Shown here piece after piece: positions 2,111 through 48,074 of a DNA stretch of 64,000 nucleotides. The stretch is from an uncultured Rikenellaceae bacterium (lineage in GTDB: Bacteria; Bacteroidota; Bacteroidia; Bacteroidales; VadinHA17): the NCBI GenBank assembly GCA_964640125.1, contig CAZXGG010000006.1:15756-79755 (forward strand). Reading direction: 5' to 3'. The position numbers and the translations under genes were made by a program. Within the stretch, counting starts at the first letter, position 1, and the number at the start of each line of letters is the position of its first letter. The notes beneath the pieces were generated by a model. It was given only the letters and a program-made list of their open reading frames with translations, was not told the DNA's origin and ran no database searches.

Positions 2111-3649
2111 CTATCTCAATTTCTTTCTGGTACTCAATAGGTGCTGCTTCACTCTCCGGATCTCATCACTCATCACATGATCACCGATAAATTTGGGAAT
2201 GATGTCCCGTACTTCTTTAAAAACAGACCGGTTGAATGCAGAAAGTTTCTTCTCAATCTCCAGGTAATCCACCGCCTGAAGAACAGCGATGAGTTCAATT
2301 GCAACGACTTCATATGCATTTTCGATCACCTTTCTTGCTATCAATGCCGCAGTGGTTCCCATGCTTACGATGTCCTGGTTATCGTTGTTACATGAGATGC
2401 TATGAATATATGCCGGGAAGGATAACGTTTGGTTTTCGGCAACCGTTGATGTTGCTGTGAACTGAATCCCCTGCATTCCAAAATTCAGTCCAAGTTTTCC
2501 TAAATTCACAAACGGTTGTAATCTCGCATTCAATTTACTGTTCAAGAGGAAATTCAACTGTCGTTCTGCCAGCATGGATAATTTGCTAATGGCTATTTTC
2601 AGCTTATCCATTTCGATGGCAACGTAATCTCCATGAAAATTACCTCCGTGAAAAACATTCTCATTATCCTGGTCAATGATCGGATTATCATCCACAGAAT
2701 TGACTTCATTCATGACCACTGATTCTGCATGATCAAGTGTATCCAGCACAGGTCCCAGAATTTGAGGTATACAACGAACCGAATAGTACTCCTGTACCTT
2801 GTCGTTTAATACACCGGGACCAATATGGTTGTTATAGAGGTGTTCGGATCTTCTTCTGATCAGCTGACTATCTGAAAGAACATCCCTCATCCATTTTGAA
2901 ACGGTTCTCTGTCCCTCATGCGATTTGACCTGGTTCAGCTCAAATGAAAAATGATCGTCATAGGATTCGACAATCTCATTGATCAGGCAGGAAATGATCA
3001 CAGACCAATGCAACATGTTTCTTGCCTGTATCAGATTAACCACACCGATCCCTGACATGGCAGAGGTCCCGTTAATTATCCCCAATCCCTCACGAATATA
3101 CATTTTCAGTGGTTGAAGGGAATATTCGTCGAACACCTCCTTTGTCGGACGGGTTTCACCCTGATGAGTAACTTCTCCTTCGCCTATCAATGCAAGCCCC
3201 AGGTGGGATAATTGAACAAGGTCACCGCTTGCACCTACACCTCCATGTTCATAAATAACCGGGTAGATCTCCCGGTTTATCATCTCCTTGAGCAGGTGAA
3301 TTATATCCGGATGAACGCCGGAATTACCCTGCAAAAAGGTGATTAACCGCGCTATCATCAACGATTTAACATAGATCCCGGGGATTGGATCACCCGTGCC
3401 AGCTGAATGGCTGCGAATGAGATTATACTGAAGCTCTATCTGATCAGCCTCATCGATCCTGTATTGCGCCATGGGTCCAAGTCCGGTATTGATCCCATAG
3501 ATGATCTTATCTTTTGAAAAACCTTGCAAAAAGTCGAAACTGGATTTCACCCTGCTGATGACTTCCTCGCTGATTTCGATTTTTTCTCCACCAAAAAGCA
3601 GTCTGTAAAAATCCTCGGCGGTTACCTTCTGTTTCTTAAACGTTATCAT
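2111..3649 (-). CDS. MIO-dependent aromatic amino-acid ammonia-lyase (HAL/PAL/TAL family); by context probably tyrosine ammonia-lyase supplying a 4-coumarate starter
   Basis: 512 aa. MIO-forming Ala-Ser-Gly in 'GGVGASGDLVQLSH'. Also 'NTGLGPMAQY', 'LQYNLIRSHSAGTG', 'NDNQDIVSMG'. The TAL assignment is contextual, based on the flexirubin FlxA-type arrangement next to KS/FabG. Confidence 0.85.
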   Translation of the reverse strand: MITFKKQKVTAEDFYRLLFGGEKIEISEEVISRVKSSFDFLQGFSKDKIIYGINTGLGPMAQYRIDEADQIELQYNLIRSHSAGTGDPIPGIYVKSLMIARLITFLQGNSGVHPDIIHLLKEMINREIYPVIYEHGGVGASGDLVQLSHLGLALIGEGEVTHQGETRPTKEVFDEYSLQPLKMYIREGLGIINGTSAMSGIGVVNLIQARNMLHWSVIISCLINEIVESYDDHFSFELNQVKSHEGQRTVSKWMRDVLSDSQLIRRRSEHLYNNHIGPGVLNDKVQEYYSVRCIPQILGPVLDTLDHAESVVMNEVNSVDDNPIIDQDNENVFHGGNFHGDYVAIEMDKLKIAISKLSMLAERQLNFLLNSKLNARLQPFVNLGKLGLNFGMQGIQFTATSTVAENQTLSFPAYIHSISCNNDNQDIVSMGTTAALIARKVIENAYEVVAIELIAVLQAVDYLEIEKKLSAFNRSVFKEVRDIIPKFIGDHVMSDEIRRVKQHLLSTRKKLR

Positions 3650-11935: not shown

Positions 11936-14332
11936 TTGATACCGTTTACGCCCATGACATTCTCCAGATCAGTCCATTCATTTCCACTGACTATCCTGTT
12001 TCTGGGAATCTTTATTTCCAGCGGCTTTTCTCAGGTTGTTTTCAAACAGAATATTCGTGGGACTGTTGTGGATAAAGCATCACAATTCCCGCTGTCAGGT
12101 GTGAATGTCATCCTTATTGGTTCCGATTCCCAGCATGGTACCATTACAAATGACCATGGGGAGTTTCGCTTTGAAGAAATCGTTATCGGAAGATACGACC
12201 TTCAGGTGAGCTATGTTGGATACAATACAGTAACCACTCCGGGAATGGAACTCACCTCTGCCAAAGAGATGGTGCTTGAGATAGAGATGGAAGAGAAAGT
12301 ATTAACCCTCGATGAAGTGACCGTAAAGGCTTACTCGAGGAAAGACCGCCCCATTAATGAAATGGCAACAGTCAGTGCACGGTCTTTTACAGTGGAAGAG
12401 ACAAACCGGTATCCTGGAAGTTATGGAGATCCTGCACGAATGGCTGCCAATTACGCAGGGGTTATGACAGCCAGGGATAACAGGAATGACATCGTGATCC
12501 GTGGCAATTCTTCCATTGGCCTGCTCTGGCGTCTTGATGGCATTGAGATCCCGAATCCAAATCATTTCGGTGCTTCCGGAACGACCGGTGGTCCCATTTC
12601 AATCCTGAACAACAACCTGTTAACCAATTCCGATTTTTATACCGGTGCATTCCCCGCTGAATACGGGAATGCGCTCGCCGGAGTATTTGACCTTAACATG
12701 CGGTTCGGGAATAATGAAAAACGGGAACACTGGGGCCAGATTGGATGGAACGGTATAGAATTTGGAACAGAAGGACCCTTTTCAAAGAACTCAAAAGCTT
12801 CCTATCTTTTCAGTTATCGATACTCGATTGTCTCCATTATTGAAAAACTAGGGATTAATCTGGAAGAAGCAGCAGAGTACCAGGACCTGACACTAAAAAT
12901 CAATCTGCCCAACACCAGGGCCGGCAGTTTTTCCATCATCGGAATGGGCGGACTGAGTCACATTGATATATGGGATTCCGATAAGGATCAGTCCGACTGG
13001 TCATTTAATGATTCTGGAGAAGATCTTACCAATGGATCAGATATCGGGGTGATTGGCCTTACACACACCCATTTCATTAAAAAGAAAACCCGGTTAAAAA
13101 CCACCGCTTCGGTAATGGGTTCCCGTGTTGAAACCAGGATCGACACATTTACTGTGAGCAACCCCGACCCGTTTATCTGGGCTGGAGAGCAATCATCAGA
13201 AACGAAATACTCCTTTACCTCCCAGCTTACCCGGAAGATCAATGCCAGAAATACACTGGTTCTTGGTGCAATGTACGATATCTACCAGACCAGCTTTGCC
13301 GATAGTCAATACTATCACGGGAACTACCGGTTGGATACCGATGCCGAAGGTAACCTTTCATTGATCAGGGCTTTTACCCAATGGCAGCATAAATTTACGG
13401 ATCATCTCTCTTCATCCATGGGTGTACATTACCAATACCTTACCTTTAACGGGTCCTGGTCTCTTGAACCAAGAGTGGGGATTACGTGGGAGTTCATTAC
13501 AAATCAATCGATCAACCTGGGTTACGGATTGCACAGTCAGATTCAGCCTCGTTTATTCTATTTCGTGTTGTCTCCCCAAACGGATGGAAGCTATGTTCAA
13601 TCCAATCGAAACCTTGGAATGTCAAAAAGCCATCAAGTGATCCTCGGATACGATTATCTGCTGAATGAAAACCTGAGACTAAAGATTGAAACATACTACC
13701 AAAAATTGTTTAATATTCCTGTTCAACCAAAAAATCCCGCTTACTCCCTCCTGAATACCGGGGCAGAATATTTTATTGAAAGGCAGGATAGCCTTGTTAA
13801 CGAAGGGACCGGTGAAAATTACGGGGTTGAATTGACATTCGAACGGTTCCTGAGCAATAACTATTATTTCCTCATTACAGCATCCTTGTTCAGCTCCACC
13901 TATGAGGGCCATGATGGAATAAAAAGAAACAGTGCTTTTAATGGCAATTATGTTTTCAATGCCATTGGTGGTTATGAGCTGATTTTCCCAAACCGGAAAG
14001 ATATTGCATTCAATTTCGGACTGAAAGCAACCTGGGCCGGTGGAGTTCCCTATGTCCCATATGATGTTGAAGAGACGGTACGATTGGGGGAAATTGTCCT
14101 GGATTGGGACCGGGCTTATGAACCCCGGCGCAAGGATTACATCAGGGCGAGCCTTCGATTGGGCATTAAGCGGAACAGACCAAAATTCGACATGGAAACG
14201 GCCATGGATTTTCAGTACCGGACAAATTACACCACCGTATTCCTGGAAAGGATCGATGTCAATACCGGAGAAATTCACAAAAATTATAAGATGGGATTCT
14301 ACCCGATGGCGACCTGGAAAATACAGTTTTGA
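11936..14332 (+). CDS. TonB-dependent receptor with N-terminal carboxypeptidase-regulatory-like domain
   Basis: 798 aa. 'IRGTVVDKASQFPLSGVNVILIGSD' (CarbopepD_reg-like). Plug-like 'IVIRGNSSIGLLWRLDGIEIPNP'. Long beta-barrel ending 'ATWKIQF'. Start is uncertain: TTG at 11936 or ATG at 11951. Confidence 0.85.
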   Translation: MIPFTPMTFSRSVHSFPLTILFLGIFISSGFSQVVFKQNIRGTVVDKASQFPLSGVNVILIGSDSQHGTITNDHGEFRFEEIVIGRYDLQVSYVGYNTVTTPGMELTSAKEMVLEIEMEEKVLTLDEVTVKAYSRKDRPINEMATVSARSFTVEETNRYPGSYGDPARMAANYAGVMTARDNRNDIVIRGNSSIGLLWRLDGIEIPNPNHFGASGTTGGPISILNNNLLTNSDFYTGAFPAEYGNALAGVFDLNMRFGNNEKREHWGQIGWNGIEFGTEGPFSKNSKASYLFSYRYSIVSIIEKLGINLEEAAEYQDLTLKINLPNTRAGSFSIIGMGGLSHIDIWDSDKDQSDWSFNDSGEDLTNGSDIGVIGLTHTHFIKKKTRLKTTASVMGSRVETRIDTFTVSNPDPFIWAGEQSSETKYSFTSQLTRKINARNTLVLGAMYDIYQTSFADSQYYHGNYRLDTDAEGNLSLIRAFTQWQHKFTDHLSSSMGVHYQYLTFNGSWSLEPRVGITWEFITNQSINLGYGLHSQIQPRLFYFVLSPQTDGSYVQSNRNLGMSKSHQVILGYDYLLNENLRLKIETYYQKLFNIPVQPKNPAYSLLNTGAEYFIERQDSLVNEGTGENYGVELTFERFLSNNYYFLITASLFSSTYEGHDGIKRNSAFNGNYVFNAIGGYELIFPNRKDIAFNFGLKATWAGGVPYVPYDVEETVRLGEIVLDWDRAYEPRRKDYIRASLRLGIKRNRPKFDMETAMDFQYRTNYTTVFLERIDVNTGEIHKNYKMGFYPMATWKIQF

Positions 14333-26704: not shown

Positions 26705-27805
26705 ATGAAAGAAGAGGTTAAAATTCCGCGGTTTCCACCAGCAATACTGGTTAAGTTTATCGACAGGATCAAGAATTGTCTGTTGACTACGGCAAGAAGA
26801 ATGGGGCCAAACAGTATGACAATATTTGAACTTAGTCAATCTATTTGGATCGCCCGTGCAATTGGTGTAGCCGTTGAACTGGAGTTGGCCGATAGCTTGT
26901 CTGACGGACCAAAAACAGTAACAGAACTGGCTGATCTCACAAAGACCAATCCTGAAAATCTCTACCGGCTTTTACGGGCTCTTGCCAGCTATGGTATCTT
27001 TCGTGAGAAACCAAATAAAACATTCCAAATGACACCCCTTGCCAGGGGATTGAAAGAGGGTGTTGGCTCGATGAAAAACATGATTGCCCACCAGCAGAAT
27101 CCGGTTAACTGGCAAATGGTTGGTGAAATGAATTACTGTATTAAAACCGGTAAGGATGTGGCGGTAAAGATACTGGGAACGGATATTTTTGAACATTTAA
27201 AGAAATATCCGGAAAAAAACAGGCTGTATAACCTTGCAATGACCGAAACGTCTGAAATAGTGAGTGCAACGGTTCTTTCAGCCTACAATTTTTCCAGGAG
27301 GAAGAAACTGGTTGATATCGGGGGAGGACACGGATACCTGCTATCCATCATTCTTTATGAATATCCAAAACTGGAAGGTGTTCTTTTCGATCTTTCCCAC
27401 GTTGTTGACGGAGCAAAAAAAATCATTGAAAAACTGGGCGTGGAGGATCGTGTTACCATTATTCCCGGAGATTTTTTTGAAACCGTTCCGCAAGGAGGGG
27501 ATACCTACATCCTGAAAAGCATCATTCATGCCTTTGATGATGATCAATGCGTGGCCCTATTGAAAAATATTTATCATGCCATGGCTGATTCGGGAAAACT
27601 GCTTATCGTCGAAGTGGTGATTAGCGAAGACAACGCTCCATCCTTTGGGAAAATTTTTGACCTTCAGATGTTGATTGGTGCTCCAGGGGGTAAAGAGCGG
27701 ACACGCAGTGAATTTGAAGAGATTCTGGGGCGCTCCGGTTTCAAGCTAAAAAGGGTTATTCGAACGGTATCCCATTTCAACATCATTGAAGCGGTGAAAA
27801 AATAA
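26705..27805 (+). CDS. SAM-dependent O-methyltransferase (family 2, with N-terminal dimerisation/winged-helix domain)
   Basis: 366 aa. 'LVDIGGGHGYLLSIIL' SAM motif I, 'IPGDFFETVPQGGDTYILKSIIH', 'LLIVE'. Confidence 0.82.
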   Translation: MKEEVKIPRFPPAILVKFIDRIKNCLLTTARRMGPNSMTIFELSQSIWIARAIGVAVELELADSLSDGPKTVTELADLTKTNPENLYRLLRALASYGIFREKPNKTFQMTPLARGLKEGVGSMKNMIAHQQNPVNWQMVGEMNYCIKTGKDVAVKILGTDIFEHLKKYPEKNRLYNLAMTETSEIVSATVLSAYNFSRRKKLVDIGGGHGYLLSIILYEYPKLEGVLFDLSHVVDGAKKIIEKLGVEDRVTIIPGDFFETVPQGGDTYILKSIIHAFDDDQCVALLKNIYHAMADSGKLLIVEVVISEDNAPSFGKIFDLQMLIGAPGGKERTRSEFEEILGRSGFKLKRVIRTVSHFNIIEAVKK

Positions 27806-27999
27806 ACCCGATTTGAATCAGAACTTTTTTCATTCAAATTTGTTACCTTATTACCGTGTCTAATAATCCCCGGGATAATGATGATAAAATCATTTCACAA
27901 ATCGTTATTTTTGCAATAATTTTTATTTTTTTTGTGTTGTTTTTTGTTTACGAGTGCTTTATTTGAGGGATTGATATTTGAATCAGATAACGTTTTGGT

Positions 28000-28473
28000 A
28001 TGAAAGAGAAAGATCTTTACGTGGATTATAAACCACAGCAACATATCTATTATGTTGAGAAAGAAGATCAGCAATATGGTCCGATTATTTCCGGATCGTA
28101 CCTGGCAAAAAATTATCTGGATGATTATTACCTGAAGCAAAAAAACCTGGAATTTTCATTGAGAACAAAGGTTATTGAAGGTAAAATCAGTCCGATCGAA
28201 TATTACATGACGTTACAGGATCTGAGCATTGCCGATCTGGCATCACGTGTGAATATTCGGCGTGTTAAACTTAAAAAATACCTGAAACCTGAGTCTTTTA
28301 ACAAGGTCCGTCTTCCCCTGTTGAGTAAATTTGCAGAGGTGTTTGATATCCCTGTTGCAAACTTCTTCCAGATATTAATCACCCGGGAAGAGGAACGCTC
28401 AAAATTAGATATCAACCAGTTAAACACAAAGAACCCGACATTTGTAGTTACCAAAATTGAATCGAAGCAGTAA
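28000..28473 (+). CDS. hypothetical protein with C-terminal XRE-like helix-turn-helix
   Basis: 157 aa. 'LSIADLASRVNIRRVKLKKYLK...LSKFAEVFDIPVANFF' resembles an HTH_XRE layout. Its stop overlaps the next ATG (TAATG). Confidence 0.45.
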   Translation: MKEKDLYVDYKPQQHIYYVEKEDQQYGPIISGSYLAKNYLDDYYLKQKNLEFSLRTKVIEGKISPIEYYMTLQDLSIADLASRVNIRRVKLKKYLKPESFNKVRLPLLSKFAEVFDIPVANFFQILITREEERSKLDINQLNTKNPTFVVTKIESKQ

Positions 28474-29474
28474 TGAGTAAAGTCCATTTTGAACATAGAA
28501 TGGGGGCACATTGTGAATCCGGTACAGTTGCCAGCCTGTTAAACCATGCTGGCCTGGAAATTACCGAACCGCTTGTATTTGGTATTGCCGGGGGAATATT
28601 CTTCGGATACATTAATACCCCTTTCTTCACTTTTCCTACCTTCATCGTACGGAATCGTCCCGGTCATATCCGGACAAATGTGGCAAAACGCCTGGGTATT
28701 TCATTCAAAACCCATAAATTCCGCAACCAAAAATCCGGTATTGAAGCATTAGACTCCCTTCTTGAACAAAATATTGCCACCGGCGCCCAGGTTGATTTCT
28801 TTTACATGAAATACATTCCGGAGTGGCAACGGGTCCATATCAATGTTCACTACATTACTATAATCGGAAAAAACGGGGCAAAATATATTCTGAGTGACAG
28901 TTATTATCCACAAATTGTTGAACTGGATTTCGAGCTCATGAGAAAAGCCCGCTTTGCTGGTGGCAACATGGCTCCAAAAGGATTCCTCTTCTACCCGGAA
29001 AAAATCACCAGCGAAGTACCCTTTGAAAAAGCGATCGTAACAGGGATAAAAAGTGCCTGTTACAACATGCTGAAACTGCCGGTGCCTTTTATCGGTGTTA
29101 AAGGAATATACCGGTTTGCAGATAAAATCATGGAGTGGCCCAGGTTAGCCAGGGATATCGAACACCTTTCCCATGAAGTAATGAAGATTAATATCTTGCT
29201 AGAGGACCAGGGAACAGGAGGAGCCGGATTTCGTTACATGTATGCTACCTTTTTACAACAAGCATCCGGTATTTTAAATAGCCCCACTCTCTCCGATATG
29301 TCAAAAAGAATGATGGAAATTGGTGACGGTTGGCGGAACATTTCTTATATTGCAGCCAAAATTGGAAAAAAGAGAGAATTGGGTGAAAGTAACCTGAAAG
29401 AGTTGAGTAACCTCATCAGAGAAAGAGGTGATCTTGAAAAAGCATTCTTTCAGGATTTGAGTAAAACGGTGTAA
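28473..29474 (+). CDS. BtrH N-terminal (peptidase C39-like) domain protein; putative ACP-dependent acyltransferase
   Basis: 333 aa. N-terminal 'GAHCESGTVASLLNHAG' matches the Cys-containing signature I associate with BtrH_N/DUF4872 proteins. Immediately followed by an ACP gene. Confidence 0.6.
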   Translation: MSKVHFEHRMGAHCESGTVASLLNHAGLEITEPLVFGIAGGIFFGYINTPFFTFPTFIVRNRPGHIRTNVAKRLGISFKTHKFRNQKSGIEALDSLLEQNIATGAQVDFFYMKYIPEWQRVHINVHYITIIGKNGAKYILSDSYYPQIVELDFELMRKARFAGGNMAPKGFLFYPEKITSEVPFEKAIVTGIKSACYNMLKLPVPFIGVKGIYRFADKIMEWPRLARDIEHLSHEVMKINILLEDQGTGGAGFRYMYATFLQQASGILNSPTLSDMSKRMMEIGDGWRNISYIAAKIGKKRELGESNLKELSNLIRERGDLEKAFFQDLSKTV

Positions 29475-29498
29475 GAATAGTGTAAAACTGAAGCAGGA

Positions 29499-29783
29499 AT
29501 GAATCAGGTGAATATTTCCGGTTTGAAGGATGAAATTAAAGCCCTGATTATCGAAGCGTTAAATATACAACACGTTAAACCAGAAAATATTAACACCGGC
29601 GATCCGCTGTTTGCCAGGGACAATATTCTGGGTTTGGATTCCATTGATGCTATCGAGATTGTCATGGCTGTTCAACGAAAATATAATGTCAGAATTGCCG
29701 ATCAAAACCTGGCACGTACTGTGCTGGAATCCATTGATACAATCGCTGAATTTGTTGCCAAAGAATTAGCACATATAGCATAA
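29499..29783 (+). CDS. acyl carrier protein (second, dedicated)
   Basis: 94 aa. 'ILGLDSIDAIEIVMAV' phosphopantetheine Ser motif. Confidence 0.85.
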   Translation: MNQVNISGLKDEIKALIIEALNIQHVKPENINTGDPLFARDNILGLDSIDAIEIVMAVQRKYNVRIADQNLARTVLESIDTIAEFVAKELAHIA

Positions 29784-29879
29784 TATTCATTCTTCATCAG
29801 GTTGTCTGATCCACATTTCTTCTGTATAATTCTCACGGCCCATACCTGGTCTGACATATCGAGTTAATTTTTGGTAGTG

Positions 29880-30971
29880 ATGAAACATTCTTACCTCCTT
29901 GCCGGAATAAAATTGAGCCATTTTTTTCGACTGATCAGGCGGAATGGATTATCCTATCGTCCAAAATACCTATTCCGCGTCCTTTTTTTGTTGCAAGGAG
30001 GAGTCTGGTCATCTTTCCTCTCCTCTCTCGAGGTAAAACGGTTCAGAGAAAAGACAAAGAATTTTCAGCCACCTGATGATCCGATTTTCATTATTGGACA
30101 TTGGAGGACGGGGAGCACCTATCTCCATCAATTGTTAAACCTGGATGATCGATTTGCATCCCCGACGGTTTTTCAGGTCTCCGTTCCCGATAATTTTTTG
30201 GTTTCCAGACGATATTATAAACCCATCATAACCCGCATGCTGGGAAGTGTTCGTCCGATGGATCAGGTTAAACTTGGTTTTGATGAGCCACAAGAGGATG
30301 AATATGCGATTTTGAAAATGGGCATGCAGTCACCCCTTGAAAAACTGATCTTTCCTAAAAACCAACGCTATTTTCTCTCCGGTTATTCTACCTTCGTCCC
30401 GGACACAACTCAACTCAACGGGTGGATCGATTCCTTTAAATTGTTTTATACGAAACTTGTTTTTCATTACAAAACAAGGATCCTGTTTAAAAATCCATTC
30501 CATTCCCTGCGAATCGAGCTGTTAAAAAAGATGTTCCCAAATGCCTATTTCATCCACATTTACCGAAATCCATACGTTGTTGTTCCCTCCACACGGCACA
30601 TGTGGAGAATTGTTGGAAGACAGAATTGTCTGCGACAATATCATTCCGATCCACCGTTTTCTGAAGTGGTTTCCTTTTATAAAATGATGATGAACAACAT
30701 CAGAAAATCCCTGGATTCACTCCCGGAGAACAGCTTTAGTGAGGTGAAATTTGAGGAGTTTGAAACCGATCCGCTGCACGTACTCAAAACCCTGTATGAT
30801 CAAATGGGCCTGACTTTTTCCTCAGAACAGGAACAGGTAATACTCAATTTTCTCAGGCAAAACAAAGATTTTAGAAAAAACAGGTATACATTATCCGCAG
30901 AGGAAGCGGATCAGATTTCAGTAGAATTGAGTCATGAATTGAAACGATGTGGTTATGAGAATCCGTATTAA
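29880..30971 (+). CDS. PAPS-dependent sulfotransferase family protein
   Basis: 5'-PSB loop 'IIGHWRTGSTYLHQLL' and 3'-PB-like 'IYRNPYVVVPST'. ATG at 29880 is preferred over the TTG at 29871. Confidence 0.78.
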   Translation: MKHSYLLAGIKLSHFFRLIRRNGLSYRPKYLFRVLFLLQGGVWSSFLSSLEVKRFREKTKNFQPPDDPIFIIGHWRTGSTYLHQLLNLDDRFASPTVFQVSVPDNFLVSRRYYKPIITRMLGSVRPMDQVKLGFDEPQEDEYAILKMGMQSPLEKLIFPKNQRYFLSGYSTFVPDTTQLNGWIDSFKLFYTKLVFHYKTRILFKNPFHSLRIELLKKMFPNAYFIHIYRNPYVVVPSTRHMWRIVGRQNCLRQYHSDPPFSEVVSFYKMMMNNIRKSLDSLPENSFSEVKFEEFETDPLHVLKTLYDQMGLTFSSEQEQVILNFLRQNKDFRKNRYTLSAEEADQISVELSHELKRCGYENPY

Positions 30972-31021
30972 CCGAATCGTGATACACGGAATGGGAAGAG
31001 TTTTTGAAAAGTAGAAGCACT

Positions 31022-32290
31022 ATGAAATTTAAACTGATATATCCGCGATGGGAGAAACTGGAGGGGCAGACCATTTTTAATCTTCCCCCGCATGGCCCGG
31101 TTGTATTTGCAGCAGCCCTGCCCGATTTTGTCGAGATTGATTTCATTGATGAAAACGTTCAGCCGCTTGACTTTGAGGATCCGGTTGATTTTGTTGGTAT
31201 TTCAATGATGCTCACCATACAGCTTAAACGGGGCTGGGAGATCGCCCATGAATACCAGAAAAGGGGCATAAAGGTAATCTTCGGAGGGATCGCCACCATG
31301 TTGCACGCTGAAGAAACAATGCAACATGCCGACTCAATATTCCTCGGTGAAGTAGAAGGCAGACTGGAACAGGTCTTTGAGGACTTCAAACAAAACCGGT
31401 TAAAGAAAGTCTATAATTATTTGAATCAGGAGCCATTAGATGTCTCTATTGTTGGCCCTGCACGCAGGGATATCCTTACCAGGGAACTTTACTTCCATAA
31501 AGGAGTGCAGATGGTTGACCTGTTCCATGCATCGCGGGGGTGCAGGTTCAATTGCTACCCATGTGCCGTCTCTTTTCTGGGCGGAAGAGTATTCCGGCCA
31601 CGACCGATCGAAAAGTCAATCGAGGAATTGGAAACCATTGAAAACAACCGGCTCTTCATTGTGGATAATTCCCTCGCACAGGACACACAGTGGGAAAAAG
31701 ATCTCTTCAAAGCCATGATCCCCTTGAAAAAAAACTGGTGCAGTCATACCATTGAAGATAAACCCGAAGTGTTGGATCTTGCTGCCCAGGCTGGTGCATG
31801 GTATGTTTACCAGGCAATATTTGATACCTCCGACTACATCAGAAAGAGAATACAACGATACCATGACTTTGGCATTTCAGTGGAAGGGACTATCTTGCTC
31901 GGAATGGATAACCAGACCGAGGATGACATAAAACGGCTGATTGATTTTCTTCTTGAAATTAACCTTGATCTCGCTGAATTCACCGTGTTGACACCCTTCC
32001 CACATACCAAAGCACATGATGATCTAAAAAAAGAACGCCGGATTATCAGCAACGATTGGAACGATTACAACGCCGGAAAGGTCGTTTTTAAACCAAAGCA
32101 TATGTCTCCGGAACGGTTACAGGAATTGTACCATTATGCCTGGGATTCATTTTATAAGGATGAAACACAGGAGCAGAAAATGTTCACATTAATTATGAAA
32201 GTAATCGAAAAAGAGATGGACGATGGTACCTACCAACCCCGGAGAAGAGATCTTGCCGATAAAAGTTTCGGAAGGGTTATTCAACGGTAA
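31022..32290 (+). CDS. B12-binding-domain radical SAM enzyme (class B), paralog 4
   Basis: 'VDFVGISMML...VIFGGIATM...HADSIFLGEVE' and 'ASRGCRFNCYPCAV'. ATG at 31022 ('MKFKLIYP') is preferred over the TTG at 31004. Confidence 0.85.
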   Translation: MKFKLIYPRWEKLEGQTIFNLPPHGPVVFAAALPDFVEIDFIDENVQPLDFEDPVDFVGISMMLTIQLKRGWEIAHEYQKRGIKVIFGGIATMLHAEETMQHADSIFLGEVEGRLEQVFEDFKQNRLKKVYNYLNQEPLDVSIVGPARRDILTRELYFHKGVQMVDLFHASRGCRFNCYPCAVSFLGGRVFRPRPIEKSIEELETIENNRLFIVDNSLAQDTQWEKDLFKAMIPLKKNWCSHTIEDKPEVLDLAAQAGAWYVYQAIFDTSDYIRKRIQRYHDFGISVEGTILLGMDNQTEDDIKRLIDFLLEINLDLAEFTVLTPFPHTKAHDDLKKERRIISNDWNDYNAGKVVFKPKHMSPERLQELYHYAWDSFYKDETQEQKMFTLIMKVIEKEMDDGTYQPRRRDLADKSFGRVIQR

Positions 32291-32333
32291 TCGGAGGGAA
32301 CCGCATGCTTAACCTGGTGAATTTTTTTACACC

Positions 32334-32708
32334 ATGAAAGGTCAGGATCAATTTGTTGAAGAAATGTATCACTTCAAGGGTGAATGGGGAATCCCTTCCC
32401 TGTGTGGTTTGAAAATTGTTATAAAAAAAGAGAAAGCAATCATCCTGGTCACTGAATTTTATGATACTAACCCTGGTACATCGATAACGAATTGGAATAC
32501 TCATCTGGCGCAGGAGATCTGCCAGAAATACAGGATTGATCCGAACCGTATGATATTCATCGAGCATGCGCCGAAAACGAGTTCAACCTTATCCTTTTAT
32601 CAGGAGACTTTTGATCGCGTCACCTTCGCCTGGGATGGAGAATCGCTTGCTGATCCTAAATGGGAAAGAATAAGTAAAGAGGAGGTTATAAAACTGATGG
32701 ATGAATAA
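32334..32708 (+). CDS. hypothetical protein (no recognisable domain)
   Basis: 124-aa ORF in operon context between the rSAM and the ligase. No motif recognised. Confidence 0.5.
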   Translation: MKGQDQFVEEMYHFKGEWGIPSLCGLKIVIKKEKAIILVTEFYDTNPGTSITNWNTHLAQEICQKYRIDPNRMIFIEHAPKTSSTLSFYQETFDRVTFAWDGESLADPKWERISKEEVIKLMDE

Positions 32709-32726
32709 TATTGAAATTGTCATCAT

Positions 32727-34079
32727 ATGAACCTGCATGAAATAACCAATATGCCTCCGGGCTGGGATTTTATTCCTGAAATTGAAAAACAACCATCCGA
32801 TGTTGTTGAGAAATATCAGGTTGAAAAATTGGTGAATCTGTTACATTATCTTTCCGGTAACTCCGCCTTTTACTCCGCGCTGTTCAAACAGTGCGGATTG
32901 GATATCGGTGCAATCCGAACCCTGAAAGATCTCTCGCATATTCCCCCAACGACAAAGAATGATCTGCAGTTATATAACCTGGATTTTATCTGTGTCGGAC
33001 AGGAAAAAATCATAGATTACATTACCACTTCCGGGACCCTTGGTGACCCCGTTACCCTGGCAATGACCGATCAGGATCTGAATCGTCTGGCGTACAATGA
33101 AGCCATCTCCTTTGCCTGTGCCGACGGTTCTTCCAATGATATCTATCAGCTTGCGCTGACCATTGACAAACGGTTTATGGCTGGCCTGGCCTATTGGATG
33201 GGAGCCCGAAAGCTGGGAGCAGGAGTTGTCAGGGTTGGAGGCGGTATTCCGGAATTGCAGTGGGATACTGTTCAACGACTATCCCCAACAACAATCGTTT
33301 GTGTTCCATCATTCATTCTGAAACTGATTGAATATGCCGAACAGCAAAAAATAGATTATCGCAACTCCTCATTAAAAAAGGCGGTATGTATTGGAGAACC
33401 AATCCGAAATCCTGATTTCACACTGGGCCCGATCGGGACAAGAATAAAGGAAAAATGGGGACTTGCACTCTATTCAACCTATGCATCCACAGAGATGTCA
33501 ACCGCTTTTACAGAATGCAGACAGGGAAAGGGCGGTCATCATCACCCGGAACTTATCATTGTTGAATTTCTTGACGAGAAGGATACCCCGGTTCGTGAAG
33601 GGGAGGCTGGTGAAGTTACAATTACTACCCTCGGTGTGGAGGGAATGCCCCTGTTGCGCTATAAGACCGGAGATATCTGTTTCCACTATACCGATCCCTG
33701 TCCATGCGGGCGTCAGAGCATGCGGTTGGGACCGGTTATTGGCAGAAAAAATCAGATGATCAAATTCAAAGGAACCACACTCTATCCCTATGCTTTATAC
33801 GATATTCTCGATAACCTGCAGGAGGTGGCAAATTATGTTGTAGAGGTGTATACCGACGAGATTGGTACGGATCAAATCTTAATCCGCATCGGATGTGAAC
33901 AGATACCGCAAGGTTTTGAAAAGGAGATCAAAGATCATTTCCGTGCACGCCTGCGGGTTGCTCCTGCTATTCGTTTTGAATCCATCGACTACATCAATAA
34001 GATACAAAATCCCCGGTCGGGAAGAAAAACGGTAAAATTTATCGACCACAGGAACAATAAAAAACAACAGGATAACTAA
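32727..34079 (+). CDS. phenylacetate-CoA ligase / F390-synthetase family adenylate-forming enzyme (PaaK-like)
   Basis: 450 aa. 'ITTSGTLGDPV' (AMP motif), 'STYASTEM', 'LRYKTGDI'. Short PaaK-type architecture. Confidence 0.8.
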   Translation: MNLHEITNMPPGWDFIPEIEKQPSDVVEKYQVEKLVNLLHYLSGNSAFYSALFKQCGLDIGAIRTLKDLSHIPPTTKNDLQLYNLDFICVGQEKIIDYITTSGTLGDPVTLAMTDQDLNRLAYNEAISFACADGSSNDIYQLALTIDKRFMAGLAYWMGARKLGAGVVRVGGGIPELQWDTVQRLSPTTIVCVPSFILKLIEYAEQQKIDYRNSSLKKAVCIGEPIRNPDFTLGPIGTRIKEKWGLALYSTYASTEMSTAFTECRQGKGGHHHPELIIVEFLDEKDTPVREGEAGEVTITTLGVEGMPLLRYKTGDICFHYTDPCPCGRQSMRLGPVIGRKNQMIKFKGTTLYPYALYDILDNLQEVANYVVEVYTDEIGTDQILIRIGCEQIPQGFEKEIKDHFRARLRVAPAIRFESIDYINKIQNPRSGRKTVKFIDHRNNKKQQDN

Positions 34080-34165: not shown

Positions 34166-35293
34166 TCAACGATACTCAAACGTAAATCCGGCTTGCATAA
34201 ACTTACTCACCTCGGTTACAAAACTGAGTACCAGGTCTCCTTTTTCCATGGACTCTTCCCGCATGATCTTGTCCATACAGATGAATACCATTGGAGGTCC
34301 GACGTATCCCATGGAAGCCATTTTTGAATAGAAGGCATCCCTGGGAATCCCAAGGTTTGCAGACTCTTCCAGCACAATCTCAGAAATATGCCTTGATGGG
34401 AAATTAATCTGGAAAAAGCGGATCTTGCGAATATCGATGGGATAACGGGTAAGCATCCGTTTTAAACCCTGGTAAAAAACAGAACCCTCCTCCTCATAAA
34501 AATGTTCGCGCAATTGCTCATTAAACATCTGGGAGAGGTGGTGTAATCCTTGTTCATACTCATCCCTGGGATTAATCCAATAGGCCGGACGGTGGTTCAA
34601 CATCGATGCTGGTTTGTTCCCACCGATGGATTCCATATAGGAGTTTTTCAGGAAAAATCCACCGGTCATCTTATTTTCTGCCTGCAATACAATAGCCCCC
34701 GCTCCATCACTCAAAAAATACCGCAAAAAAACCTCTTCTTTCTTCAGGATCTCCTGATGATAATATTCGGCACGCAACTCGGAAGATGACATGCTGGAGG
34801 AGATGATGAGAGCATTCCTATACCTGCCAGACTGCAACAGGTCATGTGCCACTACTACTCCCTTATATGCAGAAGTGCAATTAGCATGTATGGATAGTTC
34901 ACTGCAGTGATCGATTCCCAGTGCTTCCTGGATTCTTACCGAAGCGGTTGGCATCTGGTCCTGGTGAGCACTTCCGTAAATGATCAGTTCCAGATCGTTC
35001 GGGCGAATACCGGCCATATCCAATGCTTTCCTTGCAGATTTAACTGACATGGTCACATTATCATCAGTAAATTCCCTGGTTTCTGGATCAATGGCAAAAT
35101 GATAGTACTCCACCTCCAGCATCTCTTTCATCAATAGCTTCATCCTTTTCAACCATTTTTGTATTCGTACAGGCGCCCTGGTCAACTCACCCAGAAAATA
35201 ATCCACCTCATCAATGGTTACCGGAGTCCCGGGTAGATATGAGCCAGTACCTGTCAACTTAATGTGCACACTATTTTTCATTGCTCTTGTCAA
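34166..35293 (-). CDS. KAS III (FabH/CHS-like thiolase fold) family protein, non-canonical active site
   Basis: 375 aa. Colinear with FabH. Cys candidate in 'IHANCTSAYKG'. Carries 'FFQINFPSRH' where FabH has 'PHQAN', and 'MGYVGPP' where FabH has 'YGNTSAAS'. C-terminal 'KGDLVLSF'. Confidence 0.75.
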   Translation of the reverse strand: MTRAMKNSVHIKLTGTGSYLPGTPVTIDEVDYFLGELTRAPVRIQKWLKRMKLLMKEMLEVEYYHFAIDPETREFTDDNVTMSVKSARKALDMAGIRPNDLELIIYGSAHQDQMPTASVRIQEALGIDHCSELSIHANCTSAYKGVVVAHDLLQSGRYRNALIISSSMSSSELRAEYYHQEILKKEEVFLRYFLSDGAGAIVLQAENKMTGGFFLKNSYMESIGGNKPASMLNHRPAYWINPRDEYEQGLHHLSQMFNEQLREHFYEEEGSVFYQGLKRMLTRYPIDIRKIRFFQINFPSRHISEIVLEESANLGIPRDAFYSKMASMGYVGPPMVFICMDKIMREESMEKGDLVLSFVTEVSKFMQAGFTFEYR

Positions 35294-35966
35294 ATTCCAT
35301 CAACTGTTTTTCACCATAAATCCGGTTATACTTTCCTTCCAGGAATTTTGCCAATCGCACTGCATAGGTCAGTATACCCTTTTTATCCAACACTTTATCC
35401 ACAACTCCCCATGCAAGTGCTTCCCGCGGGGTAAAACTATGTCCTCCCAGAACGATTTCAAACGTTTTTAAAGTATCGGTTAAGTTTAGCATATAATGCA
35501 CTCCGCCCAAGCCAGGCAGCAGATTAAAGGATGATTCCGGTAATCCGAGAACAGCTCTTTCGGAACAAATTCGTATATGGCAGCTCAATGCCAATTCAAA
35601 AGCAGCTCCAAGGCAAACTCCTGTAATAACAGCAATAACAGGAATAGACATTCTGCTGAAAAAACGAAAGGTTTCCAGGTTTTCAATCAAGAAATCAGGT
35701 TGTTTATCTGCCTGACTTGAGTGGCTTTCCGAACAATTTTCGGTGACGTTTTGAAGCAGGTCTTTCAATTCAGCACCCGAAGAAAAGTGCCGGCCCTTTC
35801 CGTAAACCAGGATTGCATTGATCTTTTCATCTGGAATGACATTCCGCACAAGATCACCCAGTTCTTTGAAAAACAGGTTGCCCATGGAATTGTTTGGTGG
35901 CTGGTTCAGCACTAAATGTCCTATCATCTCCTCCACTTTCCACTCTATGGTTGTATAGTGATCCAC
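35271..35966 (-). CDS. enoyl-CoA hydratase/isomerase (crotonase) family
   Basis: 231 aa. 'GKGRHFSSGAEL', 'GVCLGAAFELALSCHIRIC', 'LGLPESSFNLLPGLGG'. Both catalytic Glu positions are present. Confidence 0.82.
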   Translation of the reverse strand: MDHYTTIEWKVEEMIGHLVLNQPPNNSMGNLFFKELGDLVRNVIPDEKINAILVYGKGRHFSSGAELKDLLQNVTENCSESHSSQADKQPDFLIENLETFRFFSRMSIPVIAVITGVCLGAAFELALSCHIRICSERAVLGLPESSFNLLPGLGGVHYMLNLTDTLKTFEIVLGGHSFTPREALAWGVVDKVLDKKGILTYAVRLAKFLEGKYNRIYGEKQLMEFDKSNEK

Positions 35967-35991
35967 AATTTAAATGGGGTTATTTCTTTAT

Positions 35992-36360
35992 TTATATCTC
36001 AATAATGATCATTCCAACTACCCGTTTCCTGGAATGCGAAATAGAACAGCAGATATTTTGTATCCCTCTGTTGTAACACCAACCTTTCAAATGATCAGAC
36101 AAACGGAGTACAGGTTTCCCAAAATCGTCGTTCAATATCTCGATTTCCCTGAAATCTCCCTCGTGCTGAAACTCAGTAAACAGTAGCTTTTTTATAATGT
36201 ATCGTCCTGCAAGGCTCCCAGCATTCGCTTTACCTGGGAAAAGCTCCAGTTCCCTCGGTGTGAACAATGGCTCAAGAACAGATTTCTTGTTAAATCGTTC
36301 GTGCCATTTATCAAGCAACATGATCTCATGTTTCTTTCCATATTTAACCGAATGATTCAC
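35992..36360 (-). CDS. AcpS-like phosphopantetheinyl-transferase homolog, apparently degenerate
   Basis: 122 aa. 'FTPRELELF', 'LAGRYIIKKLLF', 'EIEILNDDFGKPVL' and 'ISHSRKRVVGMIIIE' are colinear with AcpS. No N-terminal GxD motif, and KK replaces the KE(A/S) Glu. Confidence 0.55.
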   Translation of the reverse strand: MNHSVKYGKKHEIMLLDKWHERFNKKSVLEPLFTPRELELFPGKANAGSLAGRYIIKKLLFTEFQHEGDFREIEILNDDFGKPVLRLSDHLKGWCYNRGIQNICCSISHSRKRVVGMIIIEI

Positions 36361-36388
36361 TGCAGCATGGGATTTTCAACGATAACGT

Positions 36389-37141
36389 TCAGTCTGATTC
36401 ATTTTCTCTTCGCTTTGCTTCTTTGCAGGCAAGATCACAAAAAAGTTTTGTCTCTTCTATAAAGGCTTCCTCAGCGGTTTTATTCCTGCAATAATAGATC
36501 GCTCTGGTGATGGCTTGAATGACTTCCATCGGTTTATTATGAACCATAGATTTCAACAGATGGACGGAATAGGATAAGGTTTCACCAGAATCCACAACAT
36601 GGTCCACAATATTCAATTCCAATGCTTTTTCTGCATCAATCATATCCCCACCAATGATCATCTCATAACTCACTCCTCCTTTGAGAAGTTTTGATAACCG
36701 GCGAATACCTCCAAGACCGGGCATCAAATTGTGGTTTACTTCAGGAAAAGCAAACAGGGTTTTTTCGCCGCAAACTCTAATATGGCAGGCTAACGCAATT
36801 TCAAAGCCCCCTCCAAAACAGATTCCGTCAACAGCGGCTACGACGGGAATATTCAATTCTTCAATTGATTGTAACAGGCGTTTCCCCTGTTCGATTTTCT
36901 TTTGAAGCAGGTTTTTCTTCCCGGCTATTTCAAATAATTCCTGAAGATCTGCCCCCGCAGAAAAATGCCTGCCACTACCTGTAAAAACAAGACCTTTCAG
37001 CCTGTTTTTATGAAGAAAATCCTCCAACTCGCTATCCTTCAGAAAATCCGGTTCAGACAGGGAGTTCTCTGGAGGATTATCCAGGGTAATGATTCCAACA
37101 GGGTCATCAACAGTAAATTGAATATGTCCTTTCTTATTCAT
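36389..37141 (-). CDS. enoyl-CoA hydratase/isomerase (crotonase) family
   Basis: 250 aa. 'GSGRHFSAGADL', 'GICFGGGFEIALACHIRVC', 'FAFPEVNHNLMPGLGG'. Confidence 0.85.
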   Translation of the reverse strand: MNKKGHIQFTVDDPVGIITLDNPPENSLSEPDFLKDSELEDFLHKNRLKGLVFTGSGRHFSAGADLQELFEIAGKKNLLQKKIEQGKRLLQSIEELNIPVVAAVDGICFGGGFEIALACHIRVCGEKTLFAFPEVNHNLMPGLGGIRRLSKLLKGGVSYEMIIGGDMIDAEKALELNIVDHVVDSGETLSYSVHLLKSMVHNKPMEVIQAITRAIYYCRNKTAEEAFIEETKLFCDLACKEAKRRENESD

Positions 37142-37565
37142 TAAGCATCATTAAAATCTCTTGTGGCATATCAATGGGTGTCCTTGTTTCATCCAGCAAT
37201 AACGTTTTAACAGTTGCTTTTGATACCTTTTTATTTGAACCGGATTGAAGCATTTCATGATGAAAAATCAGATAGGGATCTTCCCTTCCAATGGATGTGT
37301 TGATCACCAGTTTATCAAAAAGTTTGATCTCTCTAATGTATTTAATGTGTGTCTCAACCACAACCAGAAAATTACCCGATTTCCTGAAGAAGTCAATGAG
37401 TCCTTTCTCCTTCATAATCTCCCACCTTGCATGTTCGAAATAGTTGAGATAAACGGCATTGTTCACATGGTTGAATGAATCGAGCTCATATCCCCTAACC
37501 TCAACAAAACTTTGAAACATAGATATAATTATTAAATGATTTGTCTGCCGGAAATTATTCATCAC
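37134..37565 (-). CDS. hotdog-fold acyl-CoA/ACP thioesterase (4HBT/YbgC family)
   Basis: 'VEVRGYELDSFNHVNNAVYLNYFEHARWE' is the typical 4HBT N-terminal motif. The true start may be 'MFQSF' at 37520. Confidence 0.8.
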   Translation of the reverse strand: MMNNFRQTNHLIIISMFQSFVEVRGYELDSFNHVNNAVYLNYFEHARWEIMKEKGLIDFFRKSGNFLVVVETHIKYIREIKLFDKLVINTSIGREDPYLIFHHEMLQSGSNKKVSKATVKTLLLDETRTPIDMPQEILMMLNE

Positions 37566-37713: not shown

Positions 37714-39072
37714 ATGTCAGATGAAAAGAAGTTAAATCTGGATTACCAGACAATAAAAGAACTGGAGATTATGTATGGTGAAGGCTCCGGTTTAACACTG
37801 TTTGACCTGTTAAACAGAACCGTTACACCCGGAGGAGGTGAATTTTTGCGAAAAAGATTCAAAAATCCGCTTTGCGACAGAGAAGAGATCGTACGCAGGC
37901 AGGCGAGTATAACATACATCATGGACCGGTTTGAAAACTGGGATATTAAGGCATTCAAAACTTTGATGGACCAGGTCGAACAGTATTATTATTCGAAAGC
38001 AGAACCGGTATCCAGTAACCATAAAATTGCCATCTACCTGGAAGGTTTGATTGATGTGATCCGGAACAAAAATTTCCGTAAAACCATCTTTAATGGAACC
38101 CGGATAACCATCGTTTTTATCACCTTGCTTTCAAACTTTTTAAACCGGATTCCTTCAGATGATCTCCCCTCCCTGTTGCTGGAAATAACCGGTGAGATGG
38201 CTCGAATTCTCGGATCTGACCCTTTTTCAAGGATTATCCACAAAGGGTTAGATAAGGGAGTGAGCGCAGCACAACTCATTTACTACGACAAGCTATTCAG
38301 AGAGAAGCATAAGGCAGAAGTAATCAACCTGGTTTCCCTTCTTTACGAACTGGATGTATTGATCTCCATGGCAAAAGCCAATGATGAATACGGTCTTGTT
38401 TTCCCGGAGATTATCGATTCCAGTGAGCCGGAAATGGAAGTCGAGGGATTATACCATCTATTTCTAAAAAATCCAGTTGGTAATTCCACCCGATTCAGTA
38501 ACAAGCGTAATTTTCTTTTCCTGACAGGTCCAAACATGTCCGGGAAAACCACTTTTTTAAAATCTTGTGGCATCGCTGTTTTTCTTACTCATCTCGGAAT
38601 GGGAGTCCCTGCAATTTCCATGCGGGTGAGCCTGTTCCAATGCCTCTTCAGCAGCCTGAACACCACGGATAACCTGAGCCTCGGATACAGCTATTTCTAC
38701 AGCGAGGTCCTCCGGATAAAGAAAGCCGCAGAAAGCCTTCGGAATCATGAAAAATCGTTCATGATATTCGATGAACTATTTAAAGGAACAAATGTAAAGG
38801 ATGCCTACGATGGGTCAATCCTTGTGATCGATGGATTGATGAAATGGAATTCATCACTCTTCATTCTTTCCTCGCATCTGCTGGAACTGGAACATGCAAT
38901 ACGTGACTATCCGAACACTTTTTTTCAGCATTTTGATTCCGATGTTATTAATGGGAAACCGGTTTTTAACTTTGGATTACACGACGGGATATCAAACGAA
39001 AGACTGGGTTTATTGATCCTGAAAAATGAAAAAATCGATGAGATGTTGGTTCCGCAGAATAGAGCGGATTAA
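37714..39072 (+). CDS. MutS-related protein (core + ATPase domains only; no mismatch-binding domain)
   Basis: 452 aa. 'LDYQTIKELEI...LFDLLNRTVTPGGGEFLRKRFKNPL' (MutS domain III start). Walker A 'LTGPNMSGKTTFLK'. 'IFDELFKGTN' (Walker B region). Confidence 0.8.
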   Translation: MSDEKKLNLDYQTIKELEIMYGEGSGLTLFDLLNRTVTPGGGEFLRKRFKNPLCDREEIVRRQASITYIMDRFENWDIKAFKTLMDQVEQYYYSKAEPVSSNHKIAIYLEGLIDVIRNKNFRKTIFNGTRITIVFITLLSNFLNRIPSDDLPSLLLEITGEMARILGSDPFSRIIHKGLDKGVSAAQLIYYDKLFREKHKAEVINLVSLLYELDVLISMAKANDEYGLVFPEIIDSSEPEMEVEGLYHLFLKNPVGNSTRFSNKRNFLFLTGPNMSGKTTFLKSCGIAVFLTHLGMGVPAISMRVSLFQCLFSSLNTTDNLSLGYSYFYSEVLRIKKAAESLRNHEKSFMIFDELFKGTNVKDAYDGSILVIDGLMKWNSSLFILSSHLLELEHAIRDYPNTFFQHFDSDVINGKPVFNFGLHDGISNERLGLLILKNEKIDEMLVPQNRAD

Positions 39073-42705: not shown

Positions 42706-42832
42706 TCGGTAGTAAACAGTTCGTTACTTCAAAATCTTTGAGTTACCCATTTTTTCAGAAAAAAATATGGCATTTCATTATGGAATTTAAATCACAACTG
42801 CATCCCATTAATGAAATCAAAACATATTTATT

Positions 42833-43513: not shown

Positions 43514-43558
43514 GTCATTGTATAAAAACAGATTATCACAAATTAAAAAGAATGTATC

Positions 43559-47878: not shown

Positions 47879-48074
47879 GGTAAATACCCAGGATTGAATG
47901 GATCAGATGCTATCTTATTGCAGTGCAATTCAGTTAAAGATACTAAAAAATATGGAATGTGAGTGTTTCTTCCATTTCGCTCCAAACAGGATTGGATTCA
48001 CCAGATAATGAATGAGTAAAATGATCCCGGGTTAATTAGTCACAAAGAGCAGTACAAGGATAAAAATCCGATTT

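Follow-up and report, generated by a model that had tools for sequence, protein, structure and literature searches.

The window analysed here is a stretch of 64,000 nucleotides from an uncultured, probably anaerobic, Bacteroidales bacterium, and its subject is a set of seven co-directional genes (28000-34079) which, judged by protein family membership, are part of a flexirubin-type aryl-polyene (APE) cluster. These genes are the local juxtaposition of three units: a sulfotransferase (ST) preceded by DarG', DarH' and an acyl carrier protein (ACP); a radical S-adenosylmethionine (SAM) gene, rSAM4, with a small partner, u124; and the starter ligase gene flxY. The first unit has the sequence characteristics of a conserved module that stands apart from the canonical DarG/DarH genes, and the product of the cluster is most likely a sulfated aryl-polyene or resorcinol-type lipid. 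The explanation as a whole, in which a flexirubin-type cluster assembled from three units makes a sulfated flexirubin-like pigment or lipid of the outer membrane, stands at about an even chance of being correct. The seven genes are as follows.

28000..28473, + strand: DarG', a DarG-like protein of 157 amino acids (aa) with a Cro/C1 (XRE) helix-turn-helix (HTH) core (NCBIfam; AlphaFold2, AF2)
28473..29474, + strand: DarH', predicted BtrH-related acyltransferase, papain-like Cys/His, 333 aa (NCBIfam and Pfam)
29499..29783, + strand: ACP2, dedicated ACP (PP-binding, 33.6 bits)
29880..30971, + strand: ST of the type using 3'-phosphoadenosine 5'-phosphosulfate (PAPS), 363 aa (Sulfotransfer_3)
31022..32290, + strand: rSAM4, divergent radical SAM protein with a B12-binding-like N-terminal domain, 422 aa (Pfam, below cut-offs)
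32334..32708, + strand: u124, small alpha/beta protein, 124 aa (profile search, AF2)
32727..34079, + strand: FlxY, 4-coumarate-CoA ligase, PaaK-like (NCBIfam FlxY_rubin)

The division into units emerged from a conservation scan anchored on ST, which took one genome per species and returned 80 loci, all from metagenome-assembled genomes (MAGs), with every open reading frame (ORF) of these loci matched to the window's proteins by BLASTP. The main set was defined as the 49 loci in which ST was at least 36% identical, coming from Bacteroidales (including Prolixibacteraceae, Draconibacterium, Lentimicrobiaceae and Rikenellaceae), Chlorobiota and Fibrobacterota. DarG', DarH' and ACP2 were found directly 5' of ST in 43 of these 49 loci, with ACP2 lying between DarH' and ST each time. 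The gene downstream of ST was FlxY in 20 loci, rSAM4 in ten and an outer-membrane protein in one, while 16 had nothing shared with the window at this position and the sequence ended in the remaining two. The commonest arrangement placed rSAM4, u124, an outer-membrane protein and an O-methyltransferase upstream of DarG', making the window's order of ST-rSAM4-u124-FlxY a minority arrangement. Because these gene orders separate across 49 species-level genomes, the stretch is interpreted as three independently moving units. A first-pass annotation of the same DNA had instead proposed a self-contained seven-gene branch, an idea that does not survive the placement of FlxY in the main pathway and of rSAM4-u124 in a unit of its own. 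Its account would require polyketide or fatty acid genes nearby in other genomes too, and the seven genes are indeed conserved elsewhere beside neighbours of the ketosynthase (KS) and fatty acid synthase (FAS) types.

Homologues of ST with at most 34% identity were mainly found in Planctomycetota, with a few from Proteobacteria and Desulfomonilaceae, one from a Fibrobacterota MAG and one from an archaeal MAG; these lacked the module and its neighbours, and were treated as a different context. Homologues of 39-45% identity also occurred without DarG'/DarH' in loci L036, L047 and L055 (Fibrobacterota/Chitinispirillaceae), L040 and L028. Those of L028 and L055 still adjoined radical SAM genes of the cluster type, and the neighbours in L036, L047 and L040 shared nothing with the window.

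The identification of the 333-aa protein as a BtrH relative, made in the first-pass annotation, was borne out by its profile matches (BtrH_N, 125.2 bits; DUF4872, 152.7 bits), and its score against the NCBIfam model DarH_acyl, described as a "BtrH-related acyltransferase", was marginally over the cut-off (313.1 bits; cut-off 300). A sequence search of the PDB with DarH' gave no match to a solved structure. Residues H13-C14-E15, H122 and H126 were conserved among 52 DarH' sequences, as was the D47-S48 pair among 53 ACP2 sequences, and DarH' is presumably an ACP-dependent acyltransferase, as its family predicts. DarG' fell below all of its thresholds, scoring 60.5 bits against flexirubin_DarG (cut-off 170), 54.4 bits against DarG_fam (cut-off 70) and 20.8 bits against the Pfam model HTH_26 (cut-off 22). 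The relationship of this pair to the canonical one is clearest in a single Bacteroidales MAG (L022, 562-11095), in which both types of set are adjacent. Its canonical DarG (170 bits) and DarH (450 bits) overlap by 4 nt and are accompanied by an ACP, a KS and an ABC transporter, whereas its ST-linked DarG' (63-68 bits) and DarH' (318 bits) are accompanied by ACP2 and ST. Relative to these canonical copies, the window's pair score 60 rather than 170 bits and 313 rather than 450 bits, placing DarG' and DarH', on profile scores, in a divergent clade of paralogues of DarG and DarH. The window holds the ST-linked type only, and the two modules presumably do different jobs.

The ST itself scored 107.2 bits against Sulfotransfer_3 (cut-off 27) and 39 bits against Sulfotransfer_1. 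Across 56 sequences, both the 5'-phosphosulfate-binding (5'-PSB) loop WRTGST (W78, R79, G81 and T83) and the 3'-phosphate-binding (3'-PB) residues R232 and S240 were conserved, and the homologues share an invariant acidic motif, EPQEDEY. The closest profile matches in the PDB were to the mycobacterial Stf-type enzymes 2z6v and 2zq5 (about 1e-13), with more distant matches to the STs of an olefin synthase (OLS; 4gox, 1.6e-8) and of CurM (4gbm, 2.3e-8). The first-pass annotation regarded a sulfated product of such a cluster as novel, which is a reasonable suggestion, and an ST within a flexirubin-type cluster does appear to be undescribed in the published cluster gene tables and in a literature search, which found no paper combining "flexirubin" with "sulfotransferase".

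The role of DarG' bears on how the module is understood. The first-pass annotation labelled it an HTH protein, and the fold, though not a regulatory role, was supported. The AF2 model had a mean predicted local distance difference test (pLDDT) value of 71, rising to about 90 for a core spanning residues 60-122 or so, and this five-helix HTH core matched CylR2, SinR, C.BclI and C.AhdI in Foldseek (target-normalised TM-score 0.66-0.79; rmsd 1.5-2.7 Å). The same search also retrieved the XRE-like structural domains of the enzymes HppE, HEPD and MPnS. The DarG'/DarH' junction lies between -4 and 0 nt in 30 of 44 loci, and this conserved coupling of start and stop codons suggests that DarG' is a stoichiometric partner subunit of DarH'. 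The coupling, together with the occurrence of XRE-like domains within enzymes, makes a non-regulatory role possible for DarG'. A PDB profile search with DarG' returned just designed repeat proteins and RecA, which were judged spurious.

No other gene of the stretch is as well conserved as rSAM4 (62-79% identity), on which the second unit is centred. The protein scored slightly below the cut-offs for both B12-binding (30.6 bits; cut-off 32.1) and Radical_SAM (26.4 bits; cut-off 29.5), while retaining a conserved CxxxCxxC motif in the form CRFNCYPC (residues 180-187, with C180, C184 and C187). Catalytic residues are conserved in DarH', ACP2, ST and rSAM4 alike, which was counted in favour of the pathway proposed below. 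The nearest solved structure to rSAM4 is AprD4 (6fd2, E 6e-5), an enzyme that is not known to use cobalamin. Downstream, u124 had been described as an orphan that might be specific to the pathway, which proved mistaken. It has no match in Pfam or NCBIfam, and a word-indexed search returned only 21 close clusters; a profile search of all cluster representatives, however, recovered 1,514 at E<=1e-3 and 401 at E<=1e-10, assigning u124 by sequence to a large uncharacterised family. In several members of this family, longer proteins such as P0176, P0213 and P0226, the domain is fused to DUF6166, which is of unknown function. The AF2 model of u124 is an alpha/beta fold (pLDDT 84.8; predicted TM-score 0.82), for which Foldseek found no match with a TM-score above 0.4 and a PDB profile search returned only noise (E>0.1).

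In 20 of the 22 loci examined, rSAM4 had u124 as its downstream neighbour, and subfamily members that have diverged furthest from u124 were still found directly downstream of an rSAM4 orthologue. Hence u124 is an obligate neighbour, and fixed partner, of rSAM4. In 19 of the 22 loci, u124 was followed in turn by a homologue of OMP798, an outer-membrane protein that is therefore the third gene of this unit elsewhere, although in the window it sits apart at 11936-14332. The proposal that radical SAM chemistry acts on an ACP-bound acyl group found no support, since rSAM4-u124 is a separate unit that usually lies upstream of the module.

The third unit is FlxY. The ligase had been recognised as PaaK-type, and this family assignment stands; its supposed place in a side branch does not, since it matches the equivalog model FlxY_rubin at 688.1 bits (cut-off 520), identifying it as the enzyme that provides the starter unit for the main polyene route. 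In C. pinensis, FlxY is a 4-coumarate-CoA ligase in vitro, acting after the ammonia-lyase FlxA (PMC3992019).

That the surrounding cluster is of the flexirubin type is concluded from FlxA, FlxB, DarH and FlxY all exceeding their curated NCBIfam cut-offs. The cluster begins outside the window, on its left, and reaches about 37.6 kb. The further features on which the interpretation draws are these.

2111..3649, - strand: FlxA, tyrosine ammonia-lyase, partner of FlxY (NCBIfam FlxA_rubin_TAL, 820.1 bits; cut-off 700)
11936..14332, + strand: OMP798, TonB-receptor-like outer-membrane protein, 798 aa (CarboxypepD_reg, 61 bits; Plug, 23 bits, just under cut-off)
26705..27805, + strand: O-methyltransferase (Methyltransf_2, 166.6 bits, and dimerisation domain), adjoining DarG' in most loci
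27806..27999, + strand: candidate promoter region, a 194-nt A+T-rich spacer (composition; TAnnTTTG at 27906)
34166..35293, - strand: KS3, a divergent KAS III, distantly DarB/StlD-like (StlD/DarB family, 110 bits; cut-off 450)

Besides these, the window contains a type II FAS-like polyene machinery of two KAS I/II genes, the FlxB reductase (386.6 bits; cut-off 340), a FabD-like acyltransferase (AT) and ACPs, along with AcpS-like genes. It also encodes an MMPL exporter, GT2 and LPLAT proteins, a CrtI-like oxidoreductase and a C45 acyltransferase, as in published clusters. Further cluster genes lie outside the window on its left side; they encode an ACP, a LipA-type acyltransferase and a fifth radical SAM protein of the B12 type, as well as an ApeP-like dehydratase just over the edge. 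To the right, FlxY is followed by a conserved block on the minus strand (34166-37565) comprising KS3, two enoyl-CoA hydratase (ECH) genes, an AcpS-like gene and a hotdog thioesterase (TE). KS3 scored 89.7 bits against resorcinol_DarB (cut-off 550), and was kept at 64-70% identity in L005, L007 and L025, beside the two ECH genes and the hotdog TE. This block, together with a 3-hydroxyacyl-CoA dehydrogenase (6788-7873), may act as a replacement resorcinol/cyclohexanedione branch, or else as a beta-branching cassette. A cassette of the HMG-CoA synthase type, formed by KS3 and the two ECH genes, was considered; the matches to HMG-CoA synthase were weak, and the DarB/StlD and FabH models score higher.

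The sequence comes from sediment-type metagenomes, the source sediments being represented by JGI samples 3300031652 and 3300031653. An identical metagenome contig was found, and a syntenic MAG at NCBI encodes proteins 76-95% identical to those of the window. An ORF check recovered the seven plus-strand genes at the coordinates originally assigned, and the domain labels given to them also held in Pfam (BtrH_N with DUF4872, PP-binding, Sulfotransfer_3 and AMP-binding), albeit with B12-binding and Radical_SAM just under their cut-offs. The TAATG junction that had been noted is real, the TAA stop codon of DarG' (28471-28473) overlapping by 1 nt the ATG of DarH' at 28473. The other intergenic gaps, measured between the longest ORFs, are 24, 87, 32, 43 and 18 nt, giving a full range of -1 to 87 nt. 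Gene calls from the identical metagenome contig, and the lengths of homologues, moved two start codons: ST begins at 29880 (MKHSY, 363 aa) rather than at 29871, and rSAM4 at 31022 (MKFKL, 422 aa) rather than at 31004, where their longest ORFs begin. We infer from gene spacing alone that the seven genes form an operon. The A+T-rich spacer ahead of them was likewise confirmed, at 71.6% A+T over 194 nt as against 57.3% across the window. The TAnnTTTG within it is kept in a relative with proteins 76-95% identical (L004), and matches the Bacteroidetes -7 promoter consensus. An Rfam scan of the spacer and of the window found no riboswitch or other RNA. Promoter predictions were at the level of chance (17 matches, with 20.3 expected) in a scan that is sigma-70-like and does not model Bacteroidota promoters, as were terminator predictions (seven matches, with 8.4 expected).

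From these components a pathway can be proposed. FlxA and FlxY would prime it with 4-coumaroyl-CoA as the polyene starter, a step shown for their orthologues and assigned here through family membership, and the type II FAS-like enzymes of the cluster would extend the polyene. DarH', with its coupled partner DarG', would then move an acyl group carried by ACP2 to a hydroxyl or amine acceptor. ST would O-sulfate a free hydroxyl of the DarH' product, most plausibly a phenolic or resorcinol hydroxyl, with another possibly capped by the adjoining O-methyltransferase. Such a pathway would yield an anionic pigment or lipid of the outer membrane, flexirubin-like and sulfated. The sulfation of resorcinol lipids has a precedent, which was counted in favour of this pathway: AdpST of Streptomyces davaonensis sulfates such lipids in a PAPS-dependent manner, yielding sulfated adipostatins, or sulfatostatins (PMC12135136).

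Several considerations weigh against this pathway. Every genome bearing the module is a MAG, and both the product and its sulfate acceptor are predictions from sequence. There was no DarA-type match among the window's ORFs of at least 90 aa or in the 3.2 kb to the left, and no DarB above the cut-off in the same regions, KS3 falling far below it; consequently a dialkylresorcinol half, and with it a dialkylresorcinol acceptor, is hypothetical here, although DarA and DarB genes could be elsewhere in the genome. No genes for PAPS synthesis were seen in the window. For the step joining polyene to acceptor, a 2014 paper suggested another enzyme, FlxW, and the role of DarH is a predicted one. Finally, the invariant adjacency of ACP2 and ST is equally well explained by an ST acting on an ACP-bound substrate.

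In that case, ST would resemble the activating enzymes of CurM and OLS, sulfating a hydroxyacyl group tethered to ACP2 to create a leaving group, after which DarH' would release the chain in a step involving elimination, decarboxylation or ring closure, and the final product would carry no sulfate. This is an unlikely account. In its favour, the domain order of CurM and OLS is ACP-ST-TE, mirrored by the ACP2-ST gene order that is invariant in 43 of the 49 genomes; both enzymes are among the profile matches of ST; DarH', as a papain-like protein, could play the part of hydrolase or transferase in the release; and a hotdog TE and two ECH genes are close by. It is disfavoured, however, by the better match of ST to the mycobacterial Stf-type enzymes (about 1e-13), which make stable sulfate esters, and by the lack of an alpha/beta-hydrolase TE beside ST, the hotdog TE being 6 kb away on the opposite strand. 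Nor is there a ketoreductase dedicated to ACP2, and the phenol-type O-methyltransferase that travels with the module is a better fit to the tailoring of free hydroxyls. The self-contained branch, in which an aryl or short acid would be loaded onto ACP2 by the ligase, altered on the carrier by rSAM4 and passed to the main scaffold by DarH', with sulfation last, is to be regarded as distinctly improbable. The seven genes are tightly spaced on one strand, FlxY follows ST in 20 genomes and so is often near ACP2, and a BtrH-type enzyme beside its own ACP suits transfer from carrier to acceptor. Yet FlxY is an equivalog of the main-pathway starter enzyme that forms CoA rather than ACP thioesters in vitro, most genomes place rSAM4-u124 away from ACP2 and together with an outer-membrane protein gene, and the window's order of ST-rSAM4-u124-FlxY is in the minority.

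A final alternative, which we consider very improbable, is that ST modifies a non-aromatic part of the molecule, such as a sugar or head group supplied by GT2 and the acyltransferases, with DarG' acting as a conventional XRE transcription factor. GT2, LPLAT and MMPL genes are present within the cluster, and a head group of galactosamine-phosphate-glycerol is carried by the full-length APE lipids of Xenorhabdus (bioRxiv 10.1101/2020.12.19.423268). DarG' has the XRE HTH fold, and some sources label its homologues as XRE regulators. However, ST is linked to DarH' and ACP2 rather than to GT2. Moreover, the start-stop overlap is kept in both paralogous sets of DarG and DarH, pointing to a stoichiometric partner, and XRE-like structural domains also form part of HppE, HEPD and MPnS.

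Relative to these alternatives, sulfation of a free hydroxyl on the DarH' product is the preferred interpretation, and a bolder form of it can be put forward tentatively, as something possible but somewhat doubtful. The DarG'-DarH'-ACP-ST genes may be a dedicated and previously unrecognised module that adds PAPS-dependent sulfation to type II APE/flexirubin assembly, generating a new class of sulfated outer-membrane lipid, with B12-type radical SAM enzymes replacing the corresponding enzymes of aerobes. If so, many uncultured anaerobic Bacteroidales, and some Chlorobiota represented by MAGs, would make sulfated aryl-polyene or resorcinol lipids in their outer membranes. Few families of bacterial biosynthetic gene clusters are as widespread as the one that yields flexirubins and aryl polyenes, but the step joining polyene to acceptor, and the role of DarG and DarH, are still putative. 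A DarG'/DarH' pair locked to its own ACP and ST provides a defined four-gene system that is open to expression and assay. The ST-containing variant of the flexirubin-type cluster is widespread in uncultured anaerobic Bacteroidota, and the module predicts an apparently new class of sulfated pigment or lipid in Bacteroidales of anoxic sediments. The annotation of the locus is also corrected, from a "PaaK-type ligase" to FlxY, and from an "orphan" to a fixed radical SAM partner drawn from a large unannotated family.

Other features of the cluster merit description. Five B12-binding-type radical SAM genes are associated with it, at 7843-9429 (-), 9631-11064 (+), 15374-16711 (+) and 31004-32290 (+) of the window, and at 11818-13176 of L088. 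The fifth, to the left of the window, lies beside the LipA-type acyltransferase, which is the position of DarA in F. johnsoniae (Fjoh_1103/1104). There are hints that the radical SAM enzymes here do work done in aerobes by other enzymes. The MMPL/RND-type exporter (18125-21976, -) is a 1,283-aa protein with a fused C-terminal SAM-dependent methyltransferase domain, a fusion kept in L004. A 125-aa ORF within the cluster (14452-14829, +) resembles desulfoferrodoxin, of the superoxide-reductase type, as would suit an anaerobic host; a copy with 47% identity follows the outer-membrane protein in L044.

Beyond the cluster, a gene at 37714-39072 (+) encodes a MutS-like protein of 452 aa that lacks the mismatch-binding N-terminus and is limited to the regions MutS_III and MutS_V (ATPase), and is kept beside the cluster in L001 and L004. 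The interval 40878-45967 starts with an extracytoplasmic function (ECF) sigma factor of the Bacteroidetes type, followed by TonB_C-domain proteins, and includes an 802-aa protein similar to the 'marine proteobacterial sortase target' family (446 bits; cut-off 552) with a fused TonB C-terminal domain. The remainder (46865-63981) is a starch/maltodextrin utilisation locus that has no relation to the pigment cluster, with a LacI-type regulator, SusC/SusD and several GH13 enzymes, including one with a type IX secretion system (T9SS) sorting tail.

The closest known systems are the flexirubin clusters of Chitinophaga pinensis (flxA-flxY and the dar genes) and Flavobacterium johnsoniae (Fjoh_1074-1110). 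Their published gene tables list darA, darB, darG (hypothetical), darH (a BtrH-like peptidase) and darI/J (an ABC transporter), as well as darC (an ACP), darD/E (KS), a C45 gene, a retinol-reductase-like gene, an exporter/acyltransferase, a glycosyltransferase, LolA, outer-membrane proteins and a halogenase. The window has in common with them FlxA, FlxY and FlxB; the type II FAS-like KS, AT and ACP; the C45 acyltransferase, CrtI-like reductase, MMPL, GT2 and acyltransferases; and a translationally coupled pair of DarG-like and DarH-like genes beside an ACP. Unlike them, it lacks DarA, a DarB above the cut-off and the DarI/DarJ ABC transporter, having only a remote KAS III. It has in addition the ST, u124, a 3-hydroxyacyl-CoA dehydrogenase, two ECH genes and four radical SAM genes of the B12 type, with a fifth just outside, and neither sulfotransferase nor radical SAM occurs once in the supplement on the published flexirubin clusters.

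Outside this group, DarH' resembles BtrH of the BtrH/BtrI system of butirosin biosynthesis in its BtrH_N domain, its conserved N-terminal Cys and His, and its adjoining dedicated ACP, a likeness that is a family resemblance only. It differs in an acceptor that is probably not an aminoglycoside amine, in its coupled HTH-fold partner DarG', and in the presence of a C-terminal DUF4872. With the CurM and OLS enzymes, which form terminal alkenes, ST shares a Sulfotransfer_3-type fold (about 2e-8) and a position directly after an ACP; in contrast to them, it is stand-alone, has no adjacent alpha/beta-hydrolase TE, and is closer to the Stf-type enzymes 2z6v and 2zq5. The adp cluster is an actinomycete system that employs a type III polyketide synthase and a dedicated PAPS cassette, and has no ACP, BtrH-like enzyme or aryl polyene. 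The two STs are compared by pathway context, in which they are alike, as adp combines a PAPS-type ST with a lipid-phenol (alkylresorcinol) pathway to give O-sulfated phenolic lipids (PMC12135136).

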